The notes beneath the pieces are model-generated. The model saw nothing but the letters and a program-made list of their open reading frames with translations, made no database searches and was not told the DNA's origin. Shown piece by piece: positions 5,701 to 38,889 of a stretch of 64,000 nucleotides of DNA. The DNA lies in IMG/VR virus record IMGVR_UViG_3300030329_001103, positions 1,855 to 65,854 of that record; one strand, written 5' to 3'. The position numbers and the translations under genes are program-made. The DNA comes from a virus (lineage: Duplodnaviria; Caudoviricetes). The first letter of the stretch is position 1, and every line of letters begins with the position of its first letter.

Positions 5701-7387
5701 TGCTACTATGGCTGTTAAAATGGGTATGTCTCTTTACAATGCTTCAAAGACAAACCCAGACATTCAAGCATCTTTACAAGGCATGTTAGGTTGGGATGCG
5801 GATAAATTTAGCGCATGGCAAAACAATATGAAATGGCTACAAAGTAATCCAGAATTTAGTTCATTCATTGGTGATGAAACATTTGAAATGCTATACTCAG
5901 AGGATCCAGCTAAATGGGCTGAAGCTATGAGTACTATAAAAGGAGGAACTACAGAAATTACTGATAAGATGTTATACTTCCTTTCTAAAATGATAGCCGG
6001 TTCTGAAATGCCAAACACCGAACAATTGGATAGTTTATTTAAACCACGTTCTAGTCTGAGAAATTTAGATTATAATATTACGTCTGATACTTTATGGGAA
6101 AAAACTTTCGGAGGCGGTGATACTTGGATAGGATCGGATATAATGGAAACTTTAGAAAACAATGGAATAGTAGTTACGATATATAATGCTGACGGTGAGG
6201 TAGATCGTGAGGCTAATGAAAATAATTTTAGACGGGCTGTAAAGATAGACGGAACTATATATGGCGACGATTTTAAGAATAACGGCATATGGGGGGATGA
6301 GTTTATTATGCGAGATCGTTGGCGAAAAGGACTAGGAACTTCGCGCCCTGATATTGTTTACGATGAAGACGAAGTTAGTTATTGGACACAGATGCAAGTA
6401 GCAACCTTAGGTGCCTATCTTCAACATGATGAACTTAATGCTGCTGCTCGAAATATAGTATCTTCTTTAGGTCCGGGAGAAACAATAGATATACCGACAC
6501 TTATAGATTTACTGGATACGGGAATGGATGTAACTAAAGGACTTACTTTCCATGGCATAGAACAGGGATCTAATTTTATGGGCGACGGAAGAGCCGTTAA
6601 AGAAAATTATATATTCTCTCATAGAAGCCAGCAAGGTTTATTTAAAGTAGCTAAAAATAGTCCAAAAGAAAATATGACTACATCTCAACGAGCTTACGAA
6701 ATTTGGCAAGATGCGCCACTACAAGTAAACAAAATTACTTCCCCGAGTTTTAAAGAACAGACAGTTAATAACTTTACTGAACACAATAGCTGGGGAACTG
6801 TATACACGCAAGCAGGAATAACCGAAGAGCAGTGGACTAAATCAATAAACGATATTGTAACAGAAGTAATTGGGGATTATACAAAAGCAATTCCTGTTTT
6901 AAATCAAATGGATATTGTAGGACGAAGGCCTCGTACAATGGCTATGTACGGTTCTATTTTAGATAGGATTTTTGAAACTTACCCTAATATAGATAATATA
7001 TTTGGACTAAATAGAAATACTTTGGTAGGATATGGATGGGAAGAATTAACGAGGGGTACGCCACTAGAAAGTGAAAGACCTCCCCATCTTGAGCTATTAG
7101 ATTTAAAGTGGTTATATACAAACCTATCGGTAGCTCCAGATGCTCATGGATTTCCTAAAACTTTATTTGGCATAGAGCATGATAGATATGCTCCTGGTTG
7201 TAATTTACAATATGAAGATGGCTCAGGTAATAAAAATACATGGAACTTTCCATGGGCTATTAGTGATTTATCGCTTGGCGCATCACGTATTGGTACTAGT
7301 GGAGATAAGATTATATATGACATGGATGGTACGATAATAGGTCAAAACAACGAAACTATAATTCAAGGAGCAAGTATAAATGAGTAG
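2717..7387 (+). CDS. Large internal virion protein (gp15-like position)
   Basis: 1,556-aa acidic ORF, only one Cys seen, directly before the giant ORF. Confidence 0.6.
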   Translation: MGTMTTPKPRIIDHSKTETGDIIKSLLKAAWYKRPMAAYPGESPYAGAPGTTRGPVVDYKHTGEAKHGGPVYLPGGMEGDTPEEVESWYRQKPAPPSEQIVENIPVPPAVKLNQEMLNLKPREYWQTEEGMNEWMSYAVTDDMSWLESDDEAMNQWRWTFGHYLDTKEPTTQQDYMEEYSRAKVREAFSNRLHNFGLFANDWDDLMLHIDTDGASFQEGDDTDFLDDAIDQTLNLAVNASPWLEHAREETYGNVFSLGSTFNRVLQDWHTNSPVFTANDPQGYYADWQTPARNPNQHSGMTHVRSYDLMPQEQRLLINAAMKDVPIMIPHSAFSLTKQDVAYSDPNYPYPANQPEIDKITEYQEALTNELQSFHVDPKMSQFLTDLEERKTQLSGRETQPGIGGWDPYAAAETQDFSDFYSTYRTYLPQEITDKYDAFVEPDPQLSESQLYDLKSMIKNRVLKRQTLPARVGMESETLSVSLREVLKQLKKENLLPPGLHFPEEGITDKEIDTFAELTVAASQEGKPETFAEELKLMAQNFVESPVGTFLTEGFTDEQVKVMTDVSNHVMDLVGQQEIEAEMNELAMLDNREANEKINKKLEERTANERRYWDKVERDTGMQLGMFGENHKDIFTFIAGLGGPLSAEYEGRSGQFMTMQRMLVANATLKDKTPEQIKAVAMYYLSNGMLSEIMTEGVVDGAITVNPDGTYDLALQKGAFLDNVEQLTSHLIDIQTKAASYNHKKAAELFDAKKSPEDFANWGIVKFWQEEVSADIKSYGDVVDLVNDALYDNDGAFTNDQAIRILKLWNITQEQKANLIKQGNDSDKWSRRASHGINNQGAAVAVHSNPSHLWINGDSSTDDGLGTPGHTALIEMGRNKFHNSVRQYYQQAYGDMYHPEMIPDLEQLGFVSRNNINWDALDSPQAILAENGIPIQHIAGALSHYLLDIHWSSPTPEIGRQQKALVKRINEGMALFKLPDLFTEEVTPENIGRLRSATMAVKMGMSLYNASKTNPDIQASLQGMLGWDADKFSAWQNNMKWLQSNPEFSSFIGDETFEMLYSEDPAKWAEAMSTIKGGTTEITDKMLYFLSKMIAGSEMPNTEQLDSLFKPRSSLRNLDYNITSDTLWEKTFGGGDTWIGSDIMETLENNGIVVTIYNADGEVDREANENNFRRAVKIDGTIYGDDFKNNGIWGDEFIMRDRWRKGLGTSRPDIVYDEDEVSYWTQMQVATLGAYLQHDELNAAARNIVSSLGPGETIDIPTLIDLLDTGMDVTKGLTFHGIEQGSNFMGDGRAVKENYIFSHRSQQGLFKVAKNSPKENMTTSQRAYEIWQDAPLQVNKITSPSFKEQTVNNFTEHNSWGTVYTQAGITEEQWTKSINDIVTEVIGDYTKAIPVLNQMDIVGRRPRTMAMYGSILDRIFETYPNIDNIFGLNRNTLVGYGWEELTRGTPLESERPPHLELLDLKWLYTNLSVAPDAHGFPKTLFGIEHDRYAPGCNLQYEDGSGNKNTWNFPWAISDLSLGASRIGTSGDKIIYDMDGTIIGQNNETIIQGASINE

Positions 7388-10300: not shown

Positions 10301-13300
10301 GTTAAATAGAATTGTTGGCGAAGTTAAGCCAATTTCTTCAGACGAAGCTACTGGAACTTTTGTATATCGTTACTCTGATATCTTAGAAGCACAAAAGCGT
10401 ACAGCTGGAGAAGGGGAATCAAAAGACAAGGAAGAAGTCCCAGAAATTATTATACCTGCGTCACGACAAGAAGCTATTGCTAAAATAGAAGATTATATAA
10501 AAGACTTTCGAGAAAATTTCAGCCTTTCAGAAGATGGTTCTGAATATATAGACAACGCAGGCAATATTTTCGAGAGAGTTTCTTCTGTTATCGAAGAACA
10601 AATAGGAGAAATAGATCCAGAAGCTGCCGCATTAAAAATGGGTACTCTTATAGATGATGTTGCTAGAGATTATATTACTAATCCAGATGAAGCAACAAAA
10701 CCAGAAGGATGGAGCGACGAAGCATGGGAACAGTTTAAAGACGTATGGGATCCGATTATCCAGCAATGGAAAGACGAGGGACGTTGGTATACAGCAGAAG
10801 AAACAACCTTTGGTTCACTAGATGCAGGTGGCAGCGGAAGAAGTATTGCTGGCACTACTGACATTTTAACTATCACTGAAGATGGTAAAGTTGAAATCTT
10901 TGATATCAAAACAAGTAAATACGATACTTCTGAGTGGGATACAGAATTTGGTGATAGGCTATCTAAATCCGAACGATATAGTAAACAATTATCTCTTTAT
11001 GCTACATTAGTAGAAGAAGCTTTAGGACTTGAAGTAGCAGAAATTACTGCTATTCCGCTAGAACTAAATTATAACGAGACTGATCTGATTCCTATTAGCA
11101 TTACTAAGAATAATAATGTAGGACTACGGTTATTAAATAATATTAGAATTACTAATGGAGGTCTTGTTAGTAGAGGAACGGATGCAAGGAAATCTCCGCT
11201 ATCTACTCCAGCTCCTGAAGAAACTGAAGAAGATGCGCCAACTGATTTCCAAAAATGGCAAGACAGGTTAGATACTAGTATAACTAAAACTCAAAAAACT
11301 ATTCATGATTTAACAGAAGAAAATAAAAGTGAAGATATTCCTGAAGAAAAGAAAGAAAAGAATATTGATATAATTAAGAAACTAAAAGAATCTTTAAAGA
11401 GATTGGATAGTGCGAGACGTAAGTATAAAAAAGAAATTGCTGAGTGGGAAGCACTGGATGAAATTACTCCAAGGATAAAAGACTTGCATAAAAAGATGCT
11501 AACTTTTGAAAAAGAATTAAAAGATGCAGAACGAATTCTTTATAATAATCCTGAGTATATCTATATAGTAGAACTACACAAAGCGTTAGGATCTGGACAG
11601 ACACATATACAAGGATTAATACGCCATACTTGGGATAAAGAAGCAGCAGATAATTTAACTAGAAACCAGTGGATAAAACAACGACGAGAAGCCTTAATAG
11701 CAGAACAAGAAACAGAAGAAACGAAAAAAACAGATGATGAAATAGAGACACAGATTAAAGAAGAAGCTAAAGAATTTGAAAGAGAAGTTACTTTAGATGC
11801 TATAATTGAGGAAGGGTTTAGACCATCCCTCGCTTTAATGTTAGACAATATTCCAGAAGAAAGTTTAATTAATGTAGACGACGAAGGCAATCCGGTTTCT
11901 AATAAAAATATTATAACCCAACTACAATCACTTTTAGCAATAGAAAAAGATCCCGATCCTTCTGAATTCAGTAACATGACAAAGCTTAAAGAAGCTATAC
12001 TAAGTTTGCCTGATGTAGAAGTAACTAAAACTGAGTTAAATAAAATGAACCGCGGTGAGTTAAATGAACTCTATATTAAACTAAAAAAGAAAGCAGACAG
12101 AAGCGGTAAAGTAATTTCCCGTACCGTGTTATTACAAGCTCACCAAGAAGCGGATGCTAAGTTAACACAAATGGGTTTAGACATTCAAGGTACTGAGGCG
12201 TTTATAAATCTATTAGAAGCTAAAGATAAATTAGAACAAGCTAGTACAGAATATAATATTACAAAATCTGCTTTACAGGACGAAGCTACTAAAACTAGAG
12301 GCATGGCATTAAGATCTATAGGAGATTGGCAAGAACTTCTAGCGGTTCAAGCGGTTTTAAAAAGATATATAGATTCATCAATTGCTTTAGTTGAAAATGG
12401 AGAAGTACAAACAGCTAGAGATATAAGAGATATCGCACCTGCTGGATCAAGGTTAAGAAAAGAAATCAATAAAATTATTCTTGAGATGGAAAACGATGAA
12501 GGTCCTACTAATAACGATTTAGATGCCGCTAGAGAAAAAGCAAAAACTCTGGAGGATGTATCATGGGAAGATGCAATAAACGGTATACTGCATAAATTAC
12601 CATGGTCGTTTATAACAGATAGAGCTGTGTCTATACTGGATTCTGATTTAGAGACCGGCGCAGAAACAAAACGAAAAAATTGGATTTTAAATGGACTCGA
12701 ACAAGAAAGAACTAGAATCAGTAATCTATCTCCTGAGCAAATGTGGAGAACACAAGTTCCAAGAAACTTACAATACTTAGCTAAAACTAAACTACATCAA
12801 ATGTCAGAACAAGATTGGCTTACTGTAGAAGCTGCGGATATTACCGGTCGTGATATTGAGTTATATGATAAAAAAATATTCGGCGCTGAAGCAGCGGCTA
12901 AAGAATTAGAAGCTTTAGAAATTATTAGTAATCATTTAAACGATAGACGTAGTGGATTAAATCCAGATCAACCAATTAGATCAGCAGAAATTCGTAAGTG
13001 GGCTGAGAATACAGCATATGGAGAATGGGCAGTTTCACCTTCCGTCTTATTTAAACAAGCAATAAGCAAAGAACATGAGATAGATTTAAATAAAATAACT
13101 GACGACGAGCTAGCGAATTTGGAAGTTGAAATAACTTTTGATGCAGATCTATTAGTTGATGTTATTCGAAATCTTCTAGAAGAATCTTTAGTATATAATT
13201 CTTACTTTGGTCGTAAAATTCCATCAAGGTTAAGAAAAGCAACCGTCGGCGAAACTCTTAAATCTTTAAGCTTAAAGCGAAACAAGGATGGATACTTCCC

Positions 13301-16300
13301 AGCGAAAGAAGCTAGAAGACATATTAAAGATATGTATGATGCTGTATTGCCTATACTAAGAGAAAGGGCAGATGAGTTTGGGTTTGTATATGAAGTCAAT
13401 GAAAACACGCTATGGCCTAGTGAATCTTCAGGTCCGCTGGAAGGATTAAGTCCAGCGGATAGAGGTAAGGCAGAAGCTAAATATGAAAACGTAGCTAGAA
13501 ATGCTATGATTAAACGTATACTTAAATACTTATCTAAAACAGGAACAAGAACTTTAGTTGATAATATAATGGAAGAAGTCGGTTACATAAAAGAAAAAGA
13601 TGTAACTAATCAACAGTTGGCTATGATACTAGCTGATAAAATACTTTTAGCTATTCCTAGTATAACTGAAGATAACTGGACAATCAGTAGCTTTGGTGAT
13701 GGTACTGTAGATTGGCAACCCGCTAAGGATGCAGGAGAAGGATTAGTAGATTACTTTAGTATGAAATCTCTTGTTACTAAACGCCATAAAGTAAGTATCA
13801 TTCAATATGATGATGGAAGATTTGGTATTGAAGTAAACGGTATACTAGATACAGATGAACACGAAAGTACAGCGATCTTAGCTTTGACTAAAGGTCAGGG
13901 CAATATGCTTGCGCTTATTCCACTATACGAAAGATTAAGCATAGCTGAAAATAGTAGAACTAGATTTAGAATAGAAAAGATTACCAATATCATTAATGCT
14001 CCAGAAGAAGTACAAGCGCAGTATAGAAAAGAGTGGGAAGAAAAAATTAGAAACACCAAAGTTGAGGCAGCTCTTCCTGAGGGAGCAGGGGTAATGATAA
14101 GAATACCAGATAAAAGAAATCCTATTTATTCTGGCGCTATACCTACCGAAGATAAACTTGCAGCCCACTTCTTCCCCAACCTATTATTACAAACTACAGA
14201 AGAAGAGTTCTTAACAAGAGAAGAAATATTAGATGCCGGTATGTATTATATGCTTGACCTGCCTAACTTAAGTCGTGCATACATCCAAGACTCTGTTACC
14301 TATTCAGCAAAAGCTAAAAAGAATAGACGGCTAAGTGCTGAGGTTCCGACTCATGTTCAAATAACTGAAGAAGTAATTACTAAAGATGGTATAGAACGTA
14401 AGAAAGTAACAGGCATATCAATGGGATCTGACTTTATTTTACCTCCGCATGAGATCCTTGTAAACGCTATCTGGGAAAATATTGGAGGATCTTATCAAAA
14501 TGTATTTGATCTAGCTATGGAAAGTTACGAAATAACTCGAAACCATTTAATAGAAAAACACGGCGAAGAAGCATTTACAAAAGGTAAGATGTGGAATAGA
14601 GATGTCATGCATGATGATAGAAAGAGTAGTGTATGGTGGGAATTCATGATGATGGCAGGTGCTTTAAATCCTAAGGTACAGAAAACCATTGATACTATTA
14701 GACAACAGCTAGCCAATAAAACATATGGTGGAGAAAACTTTAAACAAAACTTAGACGATCTCTATATTGAAAGTGGTATATATGTTGTCGGTAGTATATT
14801 CGATGCGCCTCAACATAAAGACAGATCTTTAAGTATTCCATCCTTTATGTCTATCTTTAACAATCTACAAAACATTAAAGATAGAACTGATTGGGATAGA
14901 ATATATGAAGCTGCAGATACAGACCAACAAAAACAAATGGATGTTATTAGAGACTTCTTTAAAATACCTGCACTACGAACTATGTATACAGGCGGCATGA
15001 AAGCTTTCTTAAGTACCTTTGAAGGCGAAAAAGAAGAAGGAACTAAGTGGCTGCAGTCAGCTTCGGAAGTATTCGGTATTAATATTAAAGATCTTAGAGC
15101 TGAATTAGAAAACCTAAGTAAAATTCTTTATGAGAATAGTTACATTGAGACGGGTATTTTAATGGAGAATGCGCTAGGTATGGATGAAGAAATCCGTTCA
15201 GAGGTGCTAAAGTTCATGGAAACAAAACAAGATGAATCCGAATTGATTAAAAAATCAAAAGACATCTTGCAAGCTGTAAGTAGAGATCCTGAAAATATAA
15301 ATAATATTATTGGATTAAACGGTATCCTTGAAGTTATGGAAGCTAGTGTAGCACATTGGGTAGAACTTGCTTATCCAGAAGGAGCTACACCTGCCAATAT
15401 GAAGAAAGCAAAGAAAAGATTAGTTAATGATCCTTTAGAAAAGAGTAAGAGATATTTAACAAAACTTAAAGCAAAGGGTATTGCAATACCTTCTGGAATG
15501 AAAGATGAGCATTGGCAATTCCTTCATGAGCTATGGCTACCAAAAGAATTTAAATCCTGGCAACATATGGATTTATTTAAAATGTGGAATATCATGTTAT
15601 CTGGTGCTTGGCAAATCAACGCAAAGAACATAAGTCAAGTAGCTAAGACCTATGGTATTATGGATTATAAATTAGAACATCTAATGGGATTACCAGAACA
15701 AAATATATATCTAAGGCAACGTCCTCAAGATACTGCTCAACGTGCCTTTGATGAGTATGGTATCTTACCAAACAATAAAGGTATTAGGTTTGATAGAGCA
15801 GAAGTAGATGCTGACAAGTTAGCTATCTATGTAGAAGAACGCAAGCAAAGCATGAATCAAGCTGAGTTTAAAAAAGATCCTGAGTATTACTTTAATCAAT
15901 TTATATTAGAATATATGGAACAAGATAAAGATCATCGTGCCGCCTTAGGTGCTTTCGATCTAGTCGATAGTCCTATGCATAAGATATATCGAGATGCTAA
16001 AAAAGAAGGAGCTACAGATAAACAAGCATGGGATAAAGTTAGAGCCGAATTGGATAAGATGCTTTGGTATGAAGAAATGTTAACATGGTCAGAAAAGTAT
16101 CCATTACCTTTTGAAGATTATACTATTGAAGATTCAAATGCAGAATTCTATAGTCACTTTATGAATTCTTGGAATCAAAGCTGGGAAGAAAGGGCAGGTA
16201 CTCTACCTGCAGAATTGCAGCAGGAAAAACAAGCTAGAAAAGAAATGAATGATAAGCCATGGAGAAAAGAGTTTATTGAGGGTAGAGTTAAAATGGGACG

Positions 16301-19300
16301 TTCTCTTGTAGTTGATCCTAAGAGACCTCACATTAATCCTTATGCTGTTGTTGAATATGACGATGCAGTCGCTAGCAAATATGATCATCCACTAACTGTA
16401 GATAGTGAAAACAGTAAAGGTCCTATATCATTTATTCCTAAGATGAATAACTATTCATTTGCTAATAGAGGTATGATGGGATTGGAACTAGCATTGAGAA
16501 CGAGAAAATTAAACGAAAGAATGGACCCAATTGAACAAGTTTTAGCCAATACAAATGAAACATTGTCTACTAAAGAAGGAGCAGAAGAAGTTATAAAGCC
16601 TTACTTAGAAGGACGAAAACCATCTATCGCTGCTCCAGAATCCGCACTAGGTCGTATAAGTCCTTGGAATCTTAATACTATTCCAGAACCACTGCCACCA
16701 ATTCCGCAGTATATAGTAGAAGAAGCTTTGGAGTTAGACGATACACGTCTGGGACAAGAGGTTGGTAGGTTCTATCAAAGAATAACTGAGTATGCTAGAA
16801 GTATTGGAATGGAAGATGAACTAGATAATCCCGAAGCATGGCCTTTCTTAAACTATATGTTACGAACTCAGAACGTAATAAAACGAAATCTTCAGTTTAC
16901 TAAACGAGGCGCAAGTAAAACACTAGGAGAAACTCTAGCTATACGTTCTAGATTTAAAGAAGACTTCTTAGAAATCTCTCAACTATCAAGAGACTTACGA
17001 GAAGAGACAAGAGATGTTATGGATTTAGAAACACCAGGGAAACCTTTAGGGATTCATAAGCCGCCTGTCGATATGACACTCGGTGAATTCTTAGGCAGTA
17101 AACCTACGAGTATGACAGATCCTACTCCATTGATTGATCACACTCTTCTATGGGATCAACTTGACTTTACAGTACCCGAAGAAAGTGTAGTTGATCAAGC
17201 TACTTTAATTGATGAGCAAGGTAATGAACATCCAATTGAATCTAAGACATCACAATTCTTAACTAATATTAACTTTAATAAAGACTTTATTAAGTACGCT
17301 GTTTCATCCCTATTAACAGAAGCTTATGGTGTAGAAGAAATCAGAAAATTCAAAGATGGTAAATATGCAAGCTTAGTAGAACCAGGTTCAGAAAATCTAG
17401 ACAACTACTTTGATATCATAGATCAATTTAGTTTAGAAGATCTTCGGGAATTGTTATATAATATTAAAAACGGTGCTAAAGAAAGTCCTGTATACTTACA
17501 TATGGACTTACGTTTGATTCGTGAACTAGGTGAAGCATCCCCAGAAAAACGAAAAGAAATGGCAGATCATTTATTTGTAGGTATTGAAAACGCAGAGTTG
17601 GCAACTACGAATGAAAAGACTGGTATTAGGCATAAGTTTAAGCATAGAGAAGGTGGTATCTATTCTGGTATGCATGCATGGTTAGCTGTACCTTCTAGAG
17701 TTAAAGGCGATACAGCTAGACTAAGAATAACACCAGAAGGTTTAATACGTATGGTTATGACATTAACTAACTCTGATTTACTTTGGAGAGCACAGATGTC
17801 TGCCATTAGTGGAAGATCTCTTGGCGTTGATGTAGACTTTGATGGCGCACCTATTAGTACTGTTGCCACTTCTAGATTGGTAAGAGAAAACGAAGGAGCT
17901 AATAATGTTCGTCGTATTCGAAAACGATCTATCCAAGAAACTACTGCTTTAGATATTATCATGGGTAAAACCGAAACAGGAAAACCACAACTTAGAACTG
18001 TAACGTCTGGTCGTAGTACTATCCGTTCAGCGGCAGTACGTCACGTAAATTACGGAGACTATCATCATCCTCGACATAAAGGAAGACTACAAAACTTTGT
18101 GATTGATGAAGTGTATTACGGTATTGCTAATGGGTTAGTGACGCAGATTAATACATTAGGTAATGGCGATTTAAATACCGCAGTAGATAAAGTACAAGAG
18201 TATATACATAAAGCTAGAATGGGAGAAGCTCATGAAAAGAATGTTATTGATATACTTGCATTAACAGTACTCGCTAATTCAGACGGAAATAATTTCCATC
18301 AAATCGATGTAGATACTCTTACCGCTTTCTTATATAATGAAGAGATTGGTAATCCAGATTCTACGAAAGTTATTACAGCAGCTCGTAATGAAGCATATGA
18401 GTTATATAGAAACTTACAGTCTTTAATCTCTAAAGACGAACATGTCTGGTCTGGTAATGATTACGATGCACTTGCGGCTGACTTTGTTTATAAACTCGCT
18501 GCAAAAGAATATCAATACCCAGATAATCCTAAACTTAATATGACAGCCGAAGAAATGGTAGATCAAATGTATGAAGATTTCTTTAAGAGAGTAGACCAAG
18601 AAGCTCCTTTAAGAATAGACGCTACTGAAGTAATTGTAGATGTAATGCAAAATCTTGGTATGTCTCAAGAAGATGCTCTTAAAATGCCTGAGGTAGTAAA
18701 TTACCAAGAATGGTTAGCTGATACTAATAAGACATATCAACTAGATATTGAAACTGACCATACTAATGAAAATATTATTTCTATTGGTATTAAAGAAGGA
18801 TCTAAAGAAACTAGATATGTAGGAAACAGTAGTGAATTCTTAAGTCAGAAACAAGCTCTAGCTATACTTAAAGCTATAGAAAAGAATCAGCAAGACGGTT
18901 ATAAGGTTTCTGCCTATAACGGTGTTAGCTTTGACTGGAGAATACTTGGAAAGGTAGCTGGAGATCATAACTTAGCGGCACGAATTGCACTAAGAAGTAT
19001 AGATCCGTTTGAAAACTTAAGGTCATTTAAGAGTAGGAATAAAGGAGTGGGATACCATGCATGGCATGGATTAGAAGCGGTAGCCGAAAGACTAGCTAAG
19101 AAACCATGGGAAAAGAGTATGGATGGTCTTGAAGCTTATCTCTATTGGCTAAGAGGGCAAGGTATTGAAATAAATAAAGAGTCTGTTATGAAATATAACA
19201 TAGACTTAGATAAAATAAAGAACTTAAAAGAACATAAAGGTAAAGGTAATAGTGCTGTCTTTAAATACTACAATGACATTGAACCTTCTGACGCTACGAC

Positions 19301-25523: not shown

Positions 25524-25535
25524 CTACCATCCAAT

Positions 25536-25613: not shown

Positions 25614-25752
25614 TTGCGCGAGAAAGAAATACAACTCTTCACAAGGAGGTGAAGCCAAAGTTGTGAGAGTGTATTGCCTTCGGGCAGCCTACTAGGGCAT
25701 ACTCGCCGTGAGTATGTTCGCCGTTAATGCGAACTTTTTTGAAAGGTTTGTC

Positions 25753-25980
25753 ATGGGTTATTTACTGGGCCCTTTCCGCGAAGCTCAACCACAAAATCGC
25801 GGAGCATATTGTCGTACGCCAGGAGATCTTAAGCTTCTCAGCAAGTGGAAAAAAGATATGGAAGCAAGAAAATCTGGTGCTAAAGTCAAAGGACAATGTC
25901 CAAAGTGCAAGAAGTACTATTATAGTGATAAAGTTCTTTATTGTGCTGTTGGTCATGCTACAGAAGCTATTGTACGATAA
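25753..25980 (+). CDS. Small basic protein with putative Zn-ribbon (CPKC...C..H)
   Basis: ATG at 25753 after GAAAGG, in frame with track ORF 25708..25980. Confidence 0.55.
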   Translation: MGYLLGPFREAQPQNRGAYCRTPGDLKLLSKWKKDMEARKSGAKVKGQCPKCKKYYYSDKVLYCAVGHATEAIVR

Positions 25981-26130
25981 GTCACCGTTCCGGTGGAGTG
26001 TGTGCTATCCCTTAGCGGGGATGGCATAACTTTTTGTTCAGCTCTACCCTAGCCAACAGGGTTAAAGAGTGTAGTATCTATTTGTTGGTGAGTTTTTTAT
26101 GGAGGCATTCTCTTCGGAGAATGTACTATT

Positions 26131-28161
26131 ATGAAAAACCTAACAGGTTTAAAATCCAGCTTGAAAAAGCTGGTGGCAGATTCCGTTTTTCACGGGCCTA
26201 TTCCTCGACTTGCGAGGTGGGTGTGGGACGAAAGATCGCTTGAATCGATCGTTGATCGTTCGGTGAATCCCACTAAATGTGCCTTAGATACCTTAGCCGA
26301 AGGCAAGGAATTGTCGGAGGTTTACCAAGGATTCTTGGATTATCTTGAAGAAGAAAATCCTGGATTCTTGGCAGAAGTAAAATCACTTGACCAAGTTAAA
26401 CTGGTTGAAGTGATTCAAGATGCAGTGGCACAAGCCCACCGTGATGAATGCCAGGAAGATAGCTTCCACTACCTACCTACCAGAGATGGTAGAATCTTCT
26501 TCACTACCGCAGAAATGCGAGAAATGAAAATAGAAGAAGGTAGTATGCATGACATCGAAGTCTCACGTCACTGGGACAGCGACCATGTTGTTTCAGAAAA
26601 CATGCGTGAAAGGGCTCGCCGTGACTTTGAAGCACCTAGTGTGCTTCTCTTGGATGATATTGAACTGCTTGTTCAAGCTAACGAAGCTATCGAAGGCGAC
26701 AACGCGCTGTTCCATCCAGATTTCTACGACAATGTGAACAACATTGGTAGCGCAGACTTTCATGTACTACCCAACATGATTACTCAAGTTGGTCGTGAAA
26801 TGTATAACACGAAGAGTAAAGGATTTATCCAAGCTTCAAAGCATCTTCGTTACTGTTACGGTACCCCTGAGGACATTCCGTCCACTCCTGAGAACACGAA
26901 ATTTATCTTTGATAGTTTCGATAAACTTGGGTTGAGTCCTACGAAAGTAGATCATATCCTTAGTAATCCTTCGGGTTATGTTAGAAGTTTAGTGGATGGT
27001 AAGAAAACCCTTCGTAATTTGAACTACGCACACATTGCTAATGATTTGCTAACCAAAGGCGCAACTAATCGTTGTGTAACGTTGGACGGTAATTCAATGG
27101 CGATCGTTACTAAAGCAGTAGTGTGGGGCCAAGACGTTATTCAGAAACTCTTTGGTCGTAGTGTTGCAAGTTTGGTTGATGCAAATCATCCTGACTATGT
27201 TCACCCTCGAGCCGGCGTTTATAACGGCATGATGGTACGAGGTAATAGGGTTGACGGATTTGGTTCCTTCCCAGAACTAGCAAGAGTTCCATTCGATTCG
27301 TTTGATGCAGATGGAGGGTCAACGTACTTTGTACAGACTGTCTATGGTGCTCAAGCTAAGCGTAATGCTTTAACAATGCTAGGTCTAAAAAGTAGGATCC
27401 TACCTCAAGACTTAGAAGACGCAACCGATGTTGACGAACTTGATCTACTAATGAGTATTATCGGAGACGAAACAACAAACTCCGCTTCTATTCCAGATTG
27501 GGCTCTGCAACTATGGATTAACTGGTGTGCTAGCAAAGGCGCTGATCCCGATACTTCAAATGATCTTATCCTACAAGATTTTGCAGATAGTATCATGGGT
27601 GAGTGGGTAGATACTGTTCATGCGAACCTACCAATTCTTGGTGTTTCTAGTAAATTGTGTAACTACATTTATACTAAAACCAAGAAAGAAACTGGTGCAC
27701 CACCTCGTGTTCAATTCACTGACGATTACGGTTTTAGTATCCGAGACGTAGTGAGACATCCAAGCAAGTACCGCAGACTTAACATAACAGTCGGCAAAGA
27801 CTTGTATACCTTGGGTGTACGCGGTAAGGTCCGAAGGTTTCATTTCAAAGAACATGGTACTATGCTAGATCCTTTAGCGGAACATGGTACAGAAGTTATT
27901 TGGATGTGGGATTGGAAAGACCGCTTCCGTGAAGCTATTAGTCATATTACCAAACATCACGGCAACATTGAACTTCGTTCTTTGTTTGACGGTGGCATGG
28001 TTCCTGCATCACTAGCTTTAATAGCTAGTCAAACAGCAACCCAAGCTATGAATGGTTTACCAGATAAAATTAGTTCGTTACCAGAACAGTACGGACTACC
28101 TCATCCAGGTAAAGGTGGTAATCTATTGGACGATAACGCAATAATTGTGAGTATGGAATAA
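26131..28161 (+). CDS. Highly diverged T7/N4-family single-subunit RNA polymerase-like protein
   Basis: Motifs in correct order: TQVGR (DxxGR), VTLDGNS (A, D319), VQTVYG (B, Y405, lacking R/K), RRLNI specificity-loop-like, WMWD..26 aa..LRSLFDG (C, D620). Confidence 0.65.
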   Translation: MKNLTGLKSSLKKLVADSVFHGPIPRLARWVWDERSLESIVDRSVNPTKCALDTLAEGKELSEVYQGFLDYLEEENPGFLAEVKSLDQVKLVEVIQDAVAQAHRDECQEDSFHYLPTRDGRIFFTTAEMREMKIEEGSMHDIEVSRHWDSDHVVSENMRERARRDFEAPSVLLLDDIELLVQANEAIEGDNALFHPDFYDNVNNIGSADFHVLPNMITQVGREMYNTKSKGFIQASKHLRYCYGTPEDIPSTPENTKFIFDSFDKLGLSPTKVDHILSNPSGYVRSLVDGKKTLRNLNYAHIANDLLTKGATNRCVTLDGNSMAIVTKAVVWGQDVIQKLFGRSVASLVDANHPDYVHPRAGVYNGMMVRGNRVDGFGSFPELARVPFDSFDADGGSTYFVQTVYGAQAKRNALTMLGLKSRILPQDLEDATDVDELDLLMSIIGDETTNSASIPDWALQLWINWCASKGADPDTSNDLILQDFADSIMGEWVDTVHANLPILGVSSKLCNYIYTKTKKETGAPPRVQFTDDYGFSIRDVVRHPSKYRRLNITVGKDLYTLGVRGKVRRFHFKEHGTMLDPLAEHGTEVIWMWDWKDRFREAISHITKHHGNIELRSLFDGGMVPASLALIASQTATQAMNGLPDKISSLPEQYGLPHPGKGGNLLDDNAIIVSME

Positions 28162-28184
28162 GGAGAATCTGCTCGGGGGAATGC

Positions 28185-28218
28185 GCTATCAGGTGTAGAA
28201 ATATGCCTGATAGCTTTT
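28185..28218 (+). terminator. Probable intrinsic terminator
   Basis: GCTATCAGGTGTA-GAAA-TATGCCTGATAGC followed by TTTT, after the 676-aa gene. Confidence 0.6.
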
Positions 28219-28279
28219 GAGGTAGAGGACAACGTGTTCTCTACATTCACACTGTTTTGTTAACTGGAAGGAAAATCCA

Positions 28280-28855
28280 ATGAGCGAAAAAACTCACAAC
28301 ACATGGACTCACACAGTCTTCAATGCGACGGGTGTAAGAGCCTCGTCTACACCTTGGTTAGTAGCTATCACACTCTATCGACCTAAAGAAGCTGAACACA
28401 CAGTAACTGTCAGAGCATGGAGAGCCGACAAGCCTCAAGCTCCTGATACTACGTGGTACTCTGGCATCATGCCTGTTCAAGCCTTCAAAGGTAAGTCAAT
28501 TTTAGATGGTGCTTGCGATGTTGCTAGGAAACATGGCAAAGTAAAAGTAGGTACAAAGATCTCAGGTCTAGGAAAGAAAGGCATGAGACTATTCTCATGG
28601 AATCTTGCCGCACCCCTCTCTTTCGAAAAGAATAGTACAGGCAAGAGACTACGCTGTACTATGAGTCTTACACATGCCTTCAAAAGTACGATAACCCTAA
28701 CTTATGAAGGACCATGGATCGCTGGAGATGTTAATGGCGCTGCTCAAGGTGCTATGTGGGATGCATGGAATAAGGATATGGAAGGCTTCGCTAATATCAA
28801 TGATTGTATTGGTGAAGAAGAAGCCATGGATTACATGACTCAAACTGTATCCTAA
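28280..28855 (+). CDS. Hypothetical protein
   Basis: 191-aa ORF with GGAAGGA RBS, followed by a terminator. Confidence 0.7.
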   Translation: MSEKTHNTWTHTVFNATGVRASSTPWLVAITLYRPKEAEHTVTVRAWRADKPQAPDTTWYSGIMPVQAFKGKSILDGACDVARKHGKVKVGTKISGLGKKGMRLFSWNLAAPLSFEKNSTGKRLRCTMSLTHAFKSTITLTYEGPWIAGDVNGAAQGAMWDAWNKDMEGFANINDCIGEEEAMDYMTQTVS

Positions 28856-28871
28856 TACCGGAGGAACACGC

Positions 28872-28905
28872 GATTCCTTAGGTCGAAAGACCTAAGGAAT
28901 CTTTT
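28872..28905 (+). terminator. Rho-independent terminator (GAAA tetraloop), copy 2
   Basis: Perfect 13-bp stem GATTCCTTAGGTC/GACCTAAGGAATC followed by a T-rich run. Confidence 0.8.
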
Positions 28906-29041
28906 ATTATTATTTTTTTACTACTCTTATGAGGGAGAGTGGACTGCCTACAGGTCAGAAGGTATGGGGTCGGTATTCTGACCTCTGAAGAGTCTGATGG
29001 TGTCTGAAGTCGGAACTATTTTTGTAAGAAATAAAAAAGTA

Positions 29042-29070
29042 TGCCCTATAGTTGGGTCTAAAAGATAAGA
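29042..29070 (+). promoter_or_regulatory. Candidate phage-RNAP promoter, copy 1
   Basis: TGCCCTATAGTTGGGTCTAAAAGATAAGA matches 47192-47220 at 26/29. Confidence 0.55.
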
Positions 29071-29255
29071 ACATAAGGTGTCTGTCTATTTGTTATATAA
29101 TAATCTAATATAAGAAGGAGTCTGAAGCAATGGGCTTCGCCTACTCAGAAGGTTCAGCGGACCGGCTTCGCCTAACCCGCTGACCCCAATCGTTCCCGAA
29201 CATGTCGGGAATGCGTACACCACTTGTGTGCGCGGTCTTAACTGGAGACAGTCCA

Positions 29256-29504
29256 ATGGCTAAATCCTTAGCTGAACTTGGATTCGGAACCGGTGGCAAG
29301 AACTACGGTTCACCCTCTGACCTCGATGCTGTGACATTGACGATGAGAGCGAACAACGTACCTTCTTTGTTCAATGACGACCTCAGTCTGAAGACCCATG
29401 TGGCTGCAAGCCCTGGGTGGACAGCTTGGGCGAACCATTGTCTGGCTTGTGCAAGGCTTATCGCTGAGCGCAAGACTGCTACCGCAGCCAAAGCCAAGGC
29501 GTGA
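29256..29504 (+). CDS. Hypothetical protein (82 aa)
   Basis: ATG 29256 with GGAG RBS, in frame with track ORF 29202..29504. Confidence 0.6.
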   Translation: MAKSLAELGFGTGGKNYGSPSDLDAVTLTMRANNVPSLFNDDLSLKTHVAASPGWTAWANHCLACARLIAERKTATAAKAKA

Positions 29505-30200
29505 GTTAGTGCTCGCATTCAACGGCATCCCGAAGTGGGTGCCTTTATATGCGGACATTAGCCGACCCCCTCGCATATGTTGGGGTCTGCTTTTTTCCTC
29601 AGGTTAGGAAAGGGTGAGCGTATACATGCAGCCCTGGGTGAGTGTGACTGTGATTGACAGCCCGAAGTGCGGTGGAAGAAACTCACAGGAGATGCGGCAA
29701 CTGTATCTATAAACCGAGAAGAGTTGCGAACCTAACCTAAGTGATAGTGGTAGGTGTGCAATGCTATTCGCAAGCAACCTACTGCTATCACTAACGATTA
29801 ACCCGGAGTCTAAATCCAAGACTCAGTAAACTGGATACCAGAGCACAACTGGTACATCAAAGCCTACGGTATAACGCTGGGATACAGGTATGTAAAGCGA
29901 CGGCTTCGATTCGTCTGTAATACCTGCCAGCTTCCGCCGTAGTAGACAAACTATTTATAGGCACGACGGTGCCGTCCGTGGCTGAATAAGCTCTGTGATA
30001 AGGAGCTAAGGCACACACTAGACTGTGGTGGTCTGACTGATGCACATAATGTGTGAGGTCATCCTCGTGACTGAGGATATGGTGGTAGGTGGTTGTAATA
30101 CAAGAGTATTATCCCTCTGCCTTGCAGGTATACCTGAATCCTGCCGGACACTAATCTACTATACAGTCAAGCGTATGGCTGTAGTTACACTGGTCCTAGT
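29505..30200 (+). ncRNA. Densely structured non-coding region, candidate long ncRNA or processed leader
   Basis: No credible + ORF for about 700 nt; many stems with G-U pairs, e.g. 29601-29608/29731-29738 and the 16-bp 29740-29755/29777-29792. Confidence 0.45.
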
Positions 30201-34671: not shown

Positions 34672-35658
34672 ATGAGTCACGAAATGTATGAACATGATCA
34701 CGCACTTTATGTAGGTGAGCCAGCGTGGCATGGACTGGGAACAGTCGTAGAGAATGCGCCTACAACTATGGATGCTATGCGTCTGGCAAGGATGGACTTT
34801 GATGTAGTAAAATCAAACCCTATCATTGCTCAGTTTAGAGATCCTAATGAGTACTATCAGAATAATACTAAAGCTAGTAAGTTCTATGCTACAGTACGCT
34901 GCGATACTAATGAAGTATTAGGTGTAGTAAGCGAGAACTATAAGGTAGTACAGAATGAAGAACTGTTTAAGATAGCAGACTCACTACCTGAAGCTAAGGT
35001 TGAGACAGCGGGTACTCTATTCAATGGAGCACAGTCTTATATCTTAATGAAGGATGATGAGTGGGCTGTCAATGGTAACGATGAGATGCATGAGTATCTC
35101 TGTCTTATGAACAGTCATGATGGTACGCTAAGTCTATCAGCACTACCTACCTCAATCAGAGTTGTCTGTAACAACACATTGAGCTGGGCAATCAGTGAAG
35201 GTAAACAACGTATGATTAGACTGAAGCACACAGGCGATATCGATAGTAAGATTCACAGCCTGACTGAAGCATTAGCTGAATGGCATCATGCTAAGGATAG
35301 GTTTAGATCTTCTGTTCGTACCCTAGCTAATAGACGCTGGGATAGAAATCAAATCCAAACTTTCTGGATGGAAATGTATCAAATGTTCGAAGGTGATGTG
35401 CCTCGAGAATCAGATACGGATAAGAATCATAGGCTTCGCAAGAAAGCTTTGACTACATTCCATACACTATCTGAAACATTCGATAAAGAAGTTCAACAGT
35501 TTGGGCAAGACAATGCATGGATTGCTGCTAACGCAGTAACCAACTGGCTGCAACACAAGAAACGCAGAACTACCGAAGCTACTGTTGCCAATAAACTTAT
35601 TGGTGATGCTAGCCGAGACTCTGCTAAAGTGATGCGTCATGCATTGCAATTAGTCTAA
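34672..35658 (+). CDS. DUF932 / TIGR03299-type phage-plasmid protein
   Basis: PAWHGLG, Y.VVQN, ETAG.L..G, NSHDG and RVVCNNT motifs. Confidence 0.85.
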   Translation: MSHEMYEHDHALYVGEPAWHGLGTVVENAPTTMDAMRLARMDFDVVKSNPIIAQFRDPNEYYQNNTKASKFYATVRCDTNEVLGVVSENYKVVQNEELFKIADSLPEAKVETAGTLFNGAQSYILMKDDEWAVNGNDEMHEYLCLMNSHDGTLSLSALPTSIRVVCNNTLSWAISEGKQRMIRLKHTGDIDSKIHSLTEALAEWHHAKDRFRSSVRTLANRRWDRNQIQTFWMEMYQMFEGDVPRESDTDKNHRLRKKALTTFHTLSETFDKEVQQFGQDNAWIAANAVTNWLQHKKRRTTEATVANKLIGDASRDSAKVMRHALQLV

Positions 35659-35845
35659 GCCCACGCCTCTGTTGATACCCAGGATACGCTTGTTTAAAGC
35701 GTTAGGTACAGGATACAGAGTGGCAAAGTAGGACGAAGACTGACTCAGTATGATACTATTGGTGAGTATAAACAGTATCTAGACAGTTAGTGGTAGTCGA
35801 TAAACATGGCAAGTACAGCCAACCACTCTTAGTAATGTGCCGAGT

Positions 35846-36148
35846 GATGGGCGTAACCCATCGACAATCTAAGACTCTGCCGAGTACAAAGCCTTTGGTG
35901 ATGCATGGTCAGCAAATAAGACTGCCTGTAAGGCGTGAAGAGGATGTAAGATTCCTTACGGTTTAAGACACGGTGGCTTGTGTCCAGAGTCAACAATCTA
36001 ATGGGGCAGGGCAGTAGTCCTCCTTAAGCCTAGTCCTCGGAGACTACCGCATATGCAGGGACTAGGTTGCCCCAACAATTTAATGGGGTGGGCAGCTGGA
36101 GCTAGCAGTTAAATAACTATAAACAGCTAACCCACCCCGACAATTATA
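35846..36148 (+). ncRNA. Array of stem-closed structured RNA units separated by ACAAT linkers
   Basis: Closing stems 35846/35862, 35873/35991, 36003/36073 and 36085/36138, each followed by (G/A)ACAAT. Confidence 0.5.
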
Positions 36149-36157
36149 GGAGATTTT

Positions 36158-36451
36158 ATGCGACAAGATCATGATCAAAAATTCGGAGGCACTTTTAATG
36201 CTCACAAGAACTGGAAGAAGTTACGAGAGAAGCATAAGAAAAGTGATGAGCATAAAGCTAGGACTGGTAAGAAGAATTGGAAGCCTGAAGTGTATGAACC
36301 TAGAGATGGTGGTGCAGGTAAAGGTGATGCTGAAAGAGAAAGAACTGTACCCGATGAAATCTATGGATACAATTATGACTTAGCCTTTGGTAAAATTACT
36401 AAGGAAGAACATAAAAAATTAGTTGAAAAATTCTGGGAGGATAACTCTTGA
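36158..36451 (+). CDS. Hypothetical basic protein
   Basis: AGGAG RBS; GAGKGD motif; overlaps the RNAP start. Confidence 0.65.
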   Translation: MRQDHDQKFGGTFNAHKNWKKLREKHKKSDEHKARTGKKNWKPEVYEPRDGGAGKGDAERERTVPDEIYGYNYDLAFGKITKEEHKKLVEKFWEDNS

Positions 36452-38889
36452 TTTGGGATACATTAAATAAAGAAGAACAGTTAGAGAGAAACCGTGCTCA
36501 AATATTATATGAACAAGAAATATTAGAATACGGTAGGCAAAAATATTGGGACGATTATGATAGAGCTCCCGATGAAGGTTTACCTGAACAAGAACTAATA
36601 GACTCTTCTGTTAATGCATTAAGAGATGAGTATCAAACATGGATTGATAAAGTATGCGCATCGCCCAAGTCTCCTAATTGGATATACCCTTTACTAGAAC
36701 TAGGTGCACAGAAGATGGCTGATATAACTATACGTGCAGTCATACGCTCATGGTTTTCTAGTAATTTCTGGGGACAAAAGTTTACTGAACAAGAACATGT
36801 ACCGCCCTTAGCACAAACTGTTGCTACATTAATAGCTCAAGATGCTTGTGATGTTATAGGCTTTCAAAGATCTAAAGAGAATCATAAAGATGAATGGCTT
36901 AAGCAATCTAAGTTTATTAAAAACTGGACACCTAAAAGATGTAAAGCATTTACAAAAAAGGTACAAGAAAATATAAAGCTAACAGTAAAACAAAAGCATG
37001 ACTTCGGTCATCACATGTTACGTATAGCTGCTTCTTCTAATATAATATTACTAGAAGGTAGATCTATTAAACGAGGTAAGTCTCTTAGAAGTTATTTGTT
37101 TGTAGAGTTTCATCCTGATGTATTACGAGAGTTACATGAACGACATGACTTATTAAAGGAAAGTAAATTAGTTTATAGACCAATGTTATGTCCGCCTGTT
37201 GAACATTCTTTAATTGAATCGGGAGGTTATGTACATACTACATTAAGAAAACCTATTGTTCAGAAATATAAATCTAATTTCTTTGGCGATAAACCTATAG
37301 AACAAAAGTTTTCTGAACCTTCTCAGTTAGTTATTGATGGGTTAAATGGTATGATGCAGACTGAGTGGAGCGTTAACGAAAAGATTTATGACGTTATGAA
37401 AACTCTATTTGAAAATAATACAGGGCTAGCTAACTTACCTGTGTTTGAGTTCGAATCTTTTATGTATAACGCACCTTACCCTAAAGGTGGGTCTAAAGAA
37501 GAAAAGGCAATATGGTGCCAACAAAGAGAACAGTCTTGGAGTGACTGGTACAAATCGGAACAAGCTAGAGGTAGAATGCTAGTTCGTTTAGCGTTGGCTA
37601 AGGAGATGATAGGCAAAGGATTTTTCTATCATGTATACACGCTAGATTTCAGAGGCAGGGCTTATACTATATGTGAGTTACTTTCGCCGCAGTCGTCAGA
37701 CTTTGATAAGGGTCTGATTCAATTTGCTAATGGCGTAGAATTAACTGATGAGGGTAGGTACTGGCAGAAAATTAATCTAGCAAACCAATTCGATCAAGAC
37801 CACTTATCATTCGATGATCGAATTAAATGGGTTGATAAAAACTGGGAGATGATAGAGAGGATAGCTAATGATCCTTACGAAAATAAAGAATGGGTTGATG
37901 ATTCTATCAAAAAGAATAAGTCCTTTCAGAGGCTGGCTGCTTGCTTTGATATTACTAGAGATGATAATCTTACTTTTATCCCGATACAGGTAGACGGCAA
38001 ATGTAATGGCAACCAACACTGGTCTGCAATTATGGGAGATCCTACGATAGCAGACTTAACTAGTGTAACTCCGAACGATGAACCTCAGGATTTATATCAG
38101 TACGTTGCTGATATAACTACACAATTCCTTAATGAGCATAAGAATAATAACACATGGTTTGATACTTTCTTATCTCATTGGGATGGGCGTATAGATAGGA
38201 AGGTAACTAAACGTTCTACTATGTGTGAACCATACGGTTTAACTTTCTATGGTATTCAAAAATATATTAAGACTGAAAGACATCTTGATTGGATACCTAA
38301 TGAACGGAGAGGTGGAGCTATTGTAGAATTATCTAGAGCTATTAAAGCATCTTTAGATAGGGCATTAGCTGAGCCTAATAAAGGTAAGCTTTACCTAAAA
38401 GAATTAGTTACTGTAGCTAATGATTTGAATAAGCACGTTGAATGGGTAACGCCAAGTGGATTTAAAGTAGTGCATCATTATAATAAGATTACTACACGAA
38501 GATCTTTAGCTAAACTATTTAACAATAAGGAACTAACATTCTTTGTTAGAACCGACGATGTAGATACTAGGTCTGCATTGCAAGCGATTGCACCAAACTT
38601 TATACATAGTTTGGATGCAGCGCATATGTTTCTGTGTATTTATTCCTTACTTTGGAATGGTATAAAAGATTTATGTATGATACATGATTCTTTTGGATGC
38701 CATGCAAACTATGTAGGGTTAATGAATACAATTATAAGACGAGAGTTCTTAGTAATGCATAAGGATAATCAATTAGAATTGTTTAAGAAAAGTTTGGAAA
38801 ACTTACTAGGTACTAAATTACCAAATGGTCCTGAAAGAGGAGACTTAGATCTGGAACAAGTTCTAAAATCTTTGTACTTCTTTGCATAG
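36448..38889 (+). CDS. T7-type DNA-dependent RNA polymerase (gp1-like)
   Basis: DFRGRAY, VDGKCNGNQHW, QDLY, RKVTKRSTM..PYG, PNFIHSLDA, IHDSFG; TTG start with GGAGGA RBS. Confidence 0.97.
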   Translation: MIWDTLNKEEQLERNRAQILYEQEILEYGRQKYWDDYDRAPDEGLPEQELIDSSVNALRDEYQTWIDKVCASPKSPNWIYPLLELGAQKMADITIRAVIRSWFSSNFWGQKFTEQEHVPPLAQTVATLIAQDACDVIGFQRSKENHKDEWLKQSKFIKNWTPKRCKAFTKKVQENIKLTVKQKHDFGHHMLRIAASSNIILLEGRSIKRGKSLRSYLFVEFHPDVLRELHERHDLLKESKLVYRPMLCPPVEHSLIESGGYVHTTLRKPIVQKYKSNFFGDKPIEQKFSEPSQLVIDGLNGMMQTEWSVNEKIYDVMKTLFENNTGLANLPVFEFESFMYNAPYPKGGSKEEKAIWCQQREQSWSDWYKSEQARGRMLVRLALAKEMIGKGFFYHVYTLDFRGRAYTICELLSPQSSDFDKGLIQFANGVELTDEGRYWQKINLANQFDQDHLSFDDRIKWVDKNWEMIERIANDPYENKEWVDDSIKKNKSFQRLAACFDITRDDNLTFIPIQVDGKCNGNQHWSAIMGDPTIADLTSVTPNDEPQDLYQYVADITTQFLNEHKNNNTWFDTFLSHWDGRIDRKVTKRSTMCEPYGLTFYGIQKYIKTERHLDWIPNERRGGAIVELSRAIKASLDRALAEPNKGKLYLKELVTVANDLNKHVEWVTPSGFKVVHHYNKITTRRSLAKLFNNKELTFFVRTDDVDTRSALQAIAPNFIHSLDAAHMFLCIYSLLWNGIKDLCMIHDSFGCHANYVGLMNTIIRREFLVMHKDNQLELFKKSLENLLGTKLPNGPERGDLDLEQVLKSLYFFA

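Follow-up and report, generated by a model that had tools for sequence, protein, structure and literature searches.

We analysed a 64,000-nt stretch of viral DNA (the window) that comprises bases 1855-65854 of the 65,854-bp IMG/VR record IMGVR_UViG_3300030329_001103, which is listed as a linear contig estimated to be 98% complete. The DNA runs containing the sequence are marine metagenomes, the long open reading frames (ORFs) of the window are all on the + strand, and matches to PHROG families identify a T7-type primase-helicase, DNA polymerase, ribonucleotide reductase, portal, major capsid protein and tail protein; the large terminase gene stops at window base 590. The source is an uncultured, deep-branching marine podophage of the T7 supergroup, whose portal is at most 31% identical to known portals (best to Pelagibacter and other T7-like podophages). 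The elements considered here are a giant gene at the end of the virion block, a GC-rich block and two RNA polymerase (RNAP) genes:

7380-24464, + strand: gene for a giant protein of 5,694 amino acids (aa), last gene of the virion block
24470-29985, no strand: GC-rich block, probable direct terminal repeat of 5.2-5.5 kb, ends approximate, recognised by depth and GC content
26131-28161, + strand: 676-aa ORF, diverged single-subunit RNAP core (TQVGR 218-222, D319, Y405, H585, D620)
34672-35658: DUF932 gene, directly upstream of gp1 (family match 1.6e-41)
36448-38889, + strand: gp1, 813-aa T7-type RNAP, recognised by PF00940, phrog_414 and its motifs

An earlier reading of the same DNA, made without database searches (the preliminary description), had proposed a cascade of three phage polymerases, encoded by the giant gene, the 676-aa ORF and gp1. 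By homology, two phage RNAP genes, gp1 and the 676-aa ORF, can be demonstrated in this one genome, which upholds the claim that there is more than one; a third polymerase inside the giant protein is unproven.

Two RNA polymerase genes in one genome

The identity of gp1 is clear from its sequence. It matches PF00940 at 3.8e-79 (267 bits, cut-off 22) and phrog_414 at 3.9e-156 over its whole length, and it carries all four canonical motifs (T/DxxGR, A, B and C). When gp1 was aligned with five known phage RNAPs, residues D400/R402/G403/R404, D516, R584/K588/Y596/G597 and H746/D747 were invariant across the six rows. We conclude, in agreement with the preliminary description, that gp1 is a full-length T7-type RNA polymerase. 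It is remote from cultured phages, with 24-28% identity to known RNAPs and at most 29% to any phage record (none at 60%). A search with gp1 returned eight related viral loci at 54-64% identity, five records of which were used for the comparisons below: two relatives that are at least 90% complete, G001 (G1, 67 kb) and G002 (G2, 54 kb), and three fragments.

The 676-aa ORF was silent by itself, with 0 families matched in Pfam and PHROGs, no match among phage records, unrelated matches only in the PDB and no usable match in the ESM Atlas; a structure prediction from a two-row alignment was unusable (predicted local distance difference test score, pLDDT, 32.1). A profile search of 1.84 billion representatives with the 676-aa family retrieved eight proteins at E <=0.001. 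The resulting alignment (A3) holds seven sequences; P0002 was left out as 99% identical to the window protein, P0010 as a fragment of 54 aa, and P0013 for its 12 short, repeated stretches. Its invariant positions are D319, R360, Y405-G406, P455, P525, Y533, R542, G576, P581, H585, E588, D620, N641 and Q653. One family member matches PF00940 at 7.9e-4, in the motif-C region, and one environmental relative (P0003) is 55% identical to the window protein. The same family found no further related loci among viral contigs.

The connection to known polymerases came through the relatives. The A3 profile matched open frames of 595 and 598 aa in G1 and G2 (called as 590 and 594 aa) at E 5e-14, with no match in the three fragment records. 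These two ORFs are recognisable polymerases in their own right, matching PF00940 at 3.6e-27 and 1.6e-29 and phrog_414 at 1e-43 and 1e-45. Since the latter match is confined to profile positions 366-777 of 816, they represent a polymerase core without the T7 N-terminal domain. Profile-profile comparison with hhalign joined A3 to the small RNAPs of G1 and G2 with a probability of 97.8% (E 9e-13, 465 columns). Set directly against T7-like RNAPs, the 676-aa family reached only 3% (E 0.015), with P581, H585 and D620 falling on PNFVH and IHDS. In a joint nine-row alignment of the window protein family with the canonical small RNAPs of G1 and G2, D319, Y405, P581, H585 and D620 were invariant (D319, D620 and Y405 in 9/9 rows), and R222, the arginine of T/DxxGR, was present in all eight rows covering it. 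H585, the equivalent of T7 H784, was kept in every row covering it. The correspondence between the 676-aa protein and the canonical row is as follows:

TQVGR (218-222): canonical DFRGR, motif T/DxxGR
D319: canonical QQDATCSG, motif A
Y405: canonical motif-B Tyr, motif B
P581/H585: canonical PNLIH, PNxxH
D620 (LFDGG): canonical IHDSFG, motif C

The canonical ORFs of the relatives and the joint alignment therefore establish the 676-aa ORF as a real, strongly diverged member of the single-subunit RNAP family. The homology proposed in the preliminary description thus holds, by a transitive route through G1 and G2, and from its sequence the protein is a compact, fast-evolving RNAP core without the T7 N-terminal promoter-binding domain. 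The phylogeny that the preliminary description had called for was answered in part: a quick maximum-likelihood tree of 18 rows set the eight small RNAPs together, separated by a branch from the gp1 clade (Shimodaira-Hasegawa-like approximate likelihood-ratio test, SH-aLRT, 100), and the rows for the virion RNAP (vRNAP) of phage N4 and for gp16 were long and unreliable.

Moreover, the arrangement of these genes is conserved. The order giant, block, small RNAP, DUF932 and gp1 is the same in 3/3 genomes (window, G1 and G2). The small RNAP, the giant and gp1, whose co-occurrence the preliminary description had proposed as a check, are found together and in that order in 2/2 relatives at least 90% complete (2/5 records searched). 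A 328-333-aa ORF occupies the DUF932 position in G1 and G2.

The small polymerase gene lies in a probable terminal repeat

The block containing the small RNAP gene had been singled out as a distinct unit at 24.5-29 kb, and its composition agrees with this: the GC content of 24.5-30.2 kb is 0.445 vs 0.386 genome-wide, and the syntenic blocks of G1 (0.478 vs 0.399) and G2 (0.494 vs 0.408) are raised as well, such that the block is GC-rich in 3/3 genomes. It opens with a conserved non-coding element that can be aligned in the window, G1 and G2:

24465-24545, + strand: conserved element at block start, GAATTT..GGGC..CCCCCnnTACCCC

Depth was taken from public metagenome contigs placed on 21-33 kb, as unitig k-mer means per contig, in three runs, one of which (X3) holds a variant strain:

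X1: giant-side flank 30.4; block (24824-29988) 56.7, 55.2 and 56.8; early-side flank 28.2
X2: giant-side flank 14.4; block (24824-29988) 25.5, 23.4 and 30; early-side flank 15.2
X3: both flanks 4.4-5.3; block (24824-29988) 9.14

The ratio of block to flank is thus 1.9 in X1, 2.0 in X2 and 1.8 in X3. In X1 and X2 the summed depth of the flanks equals that of the single contig there, with no second strain present at >=90% identity. A direct terminal repeat that has collapsed in assembly shows about twofold depth, and the block lies exactly where the late genes stop and the early genes start. From its doubled depth we conclude that the block is probably a direct terminal repeat, extending from ~24.47-24.8 to ~29.97 kb (5.2-5.5 kb), a reading absent from the preliminary description. 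If so, the packaged genome would be near 71 kb.

The block also varies between strains. The X3 strain lacks exactly 24534-24818, the unit between copies 1 and 2 of a hairpin repeat described below, which indicates that the number of units varies, apparently via recombination between repeats. The X3 and X4 strains lack 29738-29958 and have nine other letters instead.

Repeats, promoter-like motifs and structured RNAs

Three classes of candidate promoter had been put forward: a 46-bp hairpin repeat, a 29-bp repeat and sigma-70 boxes. They fared differently. The hairpin repeat ATGATGGTATCCTCCATCAA occurs in three copies (24523, 24808 and 25183) vs 0.01 expected, which supports it as a repeat, and its fold (6-bp stem, 6-nt loop) is of unremarkable stability, since 18/200 shuffles fold as well (z -1.45). 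In the block it forms part of a unit consisting of the repeat, a small ORF and then a strong hairpin or terminator. Terminator-like sites number 11 in the block vs 5.2 expected, and the two copies of a 68-nt double hairpin have paired changes in the first stem, with the loop CTGCAGC constant. The elements are as follows:

24523-24542, + strand: hairpin repeat copy 1, short form
24808-24853, + strand: hairpin repeat copy 2, 46 nt
25183-25228, + strand: hairpin repeat copy 3, 46 nt, identical to copy 2
25112-25179, + strand: 68-nt double hairpin copy 1, between two small-ORF units (fold z -5.05)
25543-25610, + strand: 68-nt double hairpin copy 2 (fold z -6.04)
28866-28906, + strand: terminator-like hairpin with T run (related copy at 24764-24804)

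The 29-bp motif CCCTAnAGTTGGGTC stood up as a repeat, with three copies (29044, 37479 and 47194) vs 0.23 expected and 0/100 shuffles reaching three. A position-weight scan of the window found no further sites, the next score being 13.4 vs 37.6-38.0 for the three copies:

29036-29071, + strand: promoter-like motif copy 1, within the block and ahead of the early gene cluster
37471-37506, + strand: copy 2, within the gp1 coding sequence (codons YPKGGSKEEK)
47186-47221, + strand: copy 3, at the start of the ribonucleotide reductase gene

Sigma-70 boxes, in contrast to the 29-bp motif, were at chance level (12 vs 11.9 expected) and thus find no support as a promoter class.

In the other genomes the 29-bp motif had 0 exact matches in 24 loci; a match with two mismatches lies at the same gp1 position in the closest relative (L010). 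The G2 block has its own, different repeated hairpin, and a repeat scan of G1 showed none. Since the repeats are not conserved in relatives, we found no case of relatives that keep them while lacking the extra polymerase genes, a pattern that the preliminary description had held would count against it. There were no 10-mers common to at least three intergenic regions, and an 11-mer scan of the window, G1 and G2 gave noise only among the matches listed.

The structured RNAs that had been predicted include one of a known family. A full-length manA RNA, a motif reportedly described by Weinberg et al. in 2010, scores 78.8 bits against a gathering threshold of 55.2 (model positions 1-192 of 192):

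29960-30154, + strand: manA RNA (RF01745), on or slightly beyond the right-hand boundary of the block

No manA match was found in G1 or G2. In run X2, one contig holds the same ~200-nt manA stretch in another context, with loose ends at 29959 and 30156, which indicates that manA is also present in another genome of that sample. Two further non-coding regions fold better than 100/100 shuffles: 29505-29959 (z -4.63), and the 499 nt at 35659-36157 between the DUF932 gene and gp1 (z -3.14). The latter holds two copies of CAACAAT[CT]TAATGGGG..GGGCAG and has no Rfam match.

A proposed relay between the two polymerases

Taken together, the results lead us to suggest, with moderate confidence and from sequence comparison, that the phage is a two-polymerase podophage of the T7 supergroup with its small RNAP gene in a probable terminal repeat, and that transcription passes from one polymerase to the other. 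In such a relay the block, present at both genome ends, would be part of the first-entering DNA and would be expressed first, most likely by host RNAP and less likely by an injected giant protein. This would supply the small polymerase together with small proteins. One of the two phage polymerases would then use the 29-bp motif at 29044, 37479 and 47194, opening the early cluster with gp1 and the DNA-metabolism genes, and gp1 would take transcription onward. We infer that the small polymerase acts between the block stage and gp1, and that the 29-bp motif is a phage promoter.

Several observations weigh against this proposal. The chance level of sigma-70 boxes leaves the host-RNAP step without positive support. 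The 29-bp motif has just three copies, none in the structural-gene region and one inside the gp1 coding sequence; being so few and absent from the structural genes, it cannot be the sole phage promoter, and neither repeat class is common to the relatives by sequence. The 676-aa polymerase itself may be weakly active or inactive: the motif-B lysine, which we take to be T7 K631, is glycine in the window protein and P0003 and lysine in the other 7/9 rows, and the quick tree places the window protein and its close relative on a long stem (1.62). Finally, the depth values are contig k-mer means, not read depths, X1 and X2 could be the very samples from which the record came, and a block common to two strains would likewise double the depth.

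The substitution in motif B and the long stem favour an alternative in which the 676-aa protein has lost RNA synthesis and survives as the relic of a polymerase, perhaps re-used as a DNA- or RNA-binding factor or a decoy, with the phage following the plain T7 scheme from host RNAP to gp1. The lack of direct Pfam and PHROG matches, where the G1 and G2 counterparts reach 1e-27 to 1e-45, points the same way. We consider this unlikely, given that both catalytic aspartates, the T/DxxGR arginine, the motif-B tyrosine and the histidine equivalent to T7 H784 are kept in every covering row, that the gene is full-length and has a 55%-identical counterpart in another environmental sequence, and that in G1 and G2 the canonical small RNAPs occupy the corresponding place.

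The doubled depth might instead reflect a module common to two co-occurring strains with different flanks, or an element amplified on its own. Contig depths add up over all organisms and do not count copies, the composition of the block is unlike the rest of the genome, and strain variants exist (the unit lost in X3, and 29738-29958 gone in X3 and X4), all of which suit such a module. Against it, the ratio stays near two in three runs of different absolute depth, the variant-strain run included, and the block sits exactly between the last late and first early genes, as T7-type genome ends do. Moreover, with no second contig at >=90% identity in the X1 and X2 flanks, the strains would need an identical 5-kb block and unrecognisable flanks, and we regard this explanation as improbable.

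The giant protein as a candidate third polymerase

A further alternative to the two-polymerase relay concerns the giant protein, in which the preliminary description had placed an RNAP domain acting as an active, injected enzyme. Relatives of the giant have 5,139 aa (G1), 5,327 aa (G2) and 5,205 aa (P0005); the four are ~20-30% identical, with only a few invariant residues per 100. By its gene position it is an ejection or cargo protein of the T7 gp16 / N4 gp50 type, and its sequence looks like that of a polyvalent, injected multi-enzyme cargo protein. The sole Pfam family match of the window giant is RNase_H_2, and PF18760 is additionally present in P0005. Its recognisable parts are:

14949-14999, + strand: motif-B-like segment IRDFFKIPALRTMYTGG, aa 2524-2540
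18741-19202: RNase_H_2-type (exonuclease-like) domain, aa 3788-3941
20061-20075: zincin HELGH motif, aa 4228

Searches for a polymerase in the window giant were blank. It had no PHROG match and no Pfam or PDB polymerase match, a PDB profile search with the giant segment gave 0 matches, and the ESM Atlas held no usable match. No related sequence was found with the segment among viral contigs or metagenome contigs, nor in a homologous-protein search that covered proteins of 1,478-4,220 aa only, below the 5,000-aa giants. With hhalign, the four giants aligned to T7-like RNAPs over 23 columns only (E 0.24), and probabilities were at most 1% against full N4 gp50 and its N- and C-terminal domains and at most 1.8% against T7 gp14, gp15 and gp16. 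An AlphaFold model of aa 1850-3000 from a three-row alignment was unusable (pLDDT 33.5), and an alignment of whole P0005 with segments (A9) was set aside because its motif columns were scrambled.

What the window giant does have is the motif-B-like segment at aa 2524, its only polymerase-like feature, by virtue of which an injected third polymerase is possible. The pattern R-x3-K-x-P-x5-Y is among the better-conserved stretches, and its R, K, P and Y are invariant in 4/4 giants in spite of their low overall identity; the residue after the tyrosine is glycine in G1 and G2, threonine in the window and glutamate in P0005. The G1 stretch, LRKLFKKPVMVYLYGAG, resembles the T7-like consensus RKVTKRPVMTLPYGAT; the N4 vRNAP has LKRGIAKNPLTITIYGSG. 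For the G1 and G2 segments, phrog_414 was the top match among 38,880 families (E 1.2e-4 and 1.8e-4, profile positions 530-611), and the G1 giant approached PF00940 at E 0.06 (12.6 bits, cut-off 22); the window segment had no phrog_414 match there. About 138 aa upstream of motif B, G1 and G2 have a motif-A-like FDGNFNGIHH, resembling the motif A sequence DGSCSGIQH. P0005 has FDSKLDGLY and the window FKQNLDDLY, the aspartate being replaced by lysine in the window only. Neither T/DxxGR nor motif C was found in canonical order after motif B in the giants; a possible permuted motif C is an I-[HQM]-D-[SA] stretch that precedes the motif-A-like segment by ~110 aa.

Between their motif-A-like and motif-B segments, the G1 and G2 giants have an insertion similar to one pentatricopeptide repeat (L020 ~10915-11025, G1 aa 2203-2238), and the window lacks it. 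The underlying match, of the G1 segment to designer pentatricopeptide repeat proteins, came from summed repeats over one 36-aa stretch, each single stretch having an i-Evalue of at least 8, and it was therefore not taken as such a domain.

If the giant were an active virion RNAP, it would read the block from the hairpin repeats, as the N4 vRNAP does, and make the small RNAP, which would lead on to gp1; the phage would have three polymerases and little need for host RNAP. The conserved motif B, the motif-A-like stretch and the family matches of G1 and G2 would fit, as would the three hairpin repeats at the block start and the unenriched sigma-70 boxes. So would the N4 vRNAP, which Hardies et al. 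2016 (PMC4819975) describe as embedded in a gp16-type protein, a precedent that makes the idea reasonable but is no evidence for the window phage. The G1 and G2 matches are mutually non-independent, however, and the blank family searches, the lysine in place of the motif-A-like aspartate, the lack of T/DxxGR and motif C in canonical order, the hhalign results and the ordinary repeat hairpin all speak against it. We regard it as possible, short of likely, that the giants carry a polymerase-derived module, and as doubtful that the window phage injects an active polymerase in its giant. Equally doubtful is a fuller version, in which the clade giants have a highly diverged T7/N4-family polymerase module with a palm order perhaps permuted to C-A-B (I-H-D-S, F-D-G-x-x-x-G-I-H, R-x3-K-x-P-x5-Y-G), one polymerase being injected, a second made from the terminal repeat and the third, gp1, made later. 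Neither the proposed domain nor its proposed activity was borne out by the searches of the window giant.

Elsewhere in these genomes, G1 and G2 each have two adjacent tRNA genes (L021 14629-14778 and L026 7823-7972), and the window has none. A 46-nt direct repeat (52566-52611 and 52823-52868, 76% identity) stands where two neighbouring frames begin, ahead of the capsid region, and may be a small gene duplication.

Discussion

For the two-polymerase relay that we favour, the closest known programme is that of N4, and the closest known genome plan is that of T7. In N4, transcription begins with the vRNAP gp50, continues with RNAPII (gp15 and gp16) and then passes to host RNAP with the N4 single-stranded DNA-binding protein (SSB). 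The window phage shares with N4 a small polymerase that lacks the T7 N-terminal domain and is encoded in the region predicted to be expressed first, a giant last virion protein and repeated hairpin elements at the leading end. It also has more than one T7-family polymerase in one podophage, as an N4 study records (PMC4496689). Unlike N4 RNAPII, the small RNAP of this clade is a single chain (676 aa in the window phage vs 269+404 aa for gp15+gp16), and its scores place it closer to T7-like RNAPs than to N4 RNAPII (G1 counterpart, phrog_414 1e-43 vs phrog_2166 3e-13). Also unlike N4, the phage has a full-length T7-type gp1 and T7-kind portal and tail genes, and its giant has no detectable similarity to gp50 (phrog_2206).

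In the T7 / Autographiviridae scheme, host RNAP acts first and is followed by the single gp1 RNAP. The window phage resembles T7 in its gp1 with all four motifs, its T7-kind primase-helicase, DNA polymerase, portal, capsid and tail-tube genes on one strand, and its probable genome ends between late and early genes. It differs in having a second RNAP gene, a 66-kb genome and a 5,694-aa protein in the place of gp16. The terminal repeat of T7 is short and non-coding, whereas the probable repeat described here is kilobases long and bears genes. In that respect it recalls the T5, SPO1 and Twort-like phages, siphoviruses or myoviruses whose long terminal repeats hold first-expressed genes read by host RNAP. 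Here too there would be a multi-kilobase redundancy with small early genes that is first into the cell (its ends being approximate), in this case in a T7-like podophage and with an RNA polymerase gene inside. The manA RNA matches RF01745 over its full length but differs in its setting, since it precedes the early cluster of a T7-like phage and borders the probable terminal repeat.

Polyvalent proteins were reportedly described by Iyer et al. in 2017. The giant resembles such cargo virion proteins, as presented by Hardies et al. 2016 (PMC4819975), in being a multi-domain protein at the end of the virion block with an RNase_H_2-type domain and a zincin motif; it differs from them in that only RNase_H_2 reaches family threshold in the window giant. 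In the open-access literature searched, we found neither a kilobase-scale terminal repeat with an RNAP gene in a T7-like phage nor the combination of T7 and N4 features seen in this clade.

T7 and N4 represent the two textbook routes by which podophages take over transcription, and the clade described here, three genomes with the same layout, combines elements of both: a full T7-type gp1, a core-only polymerase in what is probably the first-entering DNA, and, at the end of the virion block, a giant protein bearing a polymerase-like motif. If the relay is true, these phages would provide two single-subunit polymerases that form a naturally orthogonal pair, each with short promoters of its own, and a test case for the origin of multi-polymerase cascades and of the N4 virion polymerase. 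If the giants do carry an injected polymerase module, the podophage would be largely independent of host RNAP, and it would be a living T7-like/N4-like intermediate, showing how an RNAP entered a gp16-type ejection protein.

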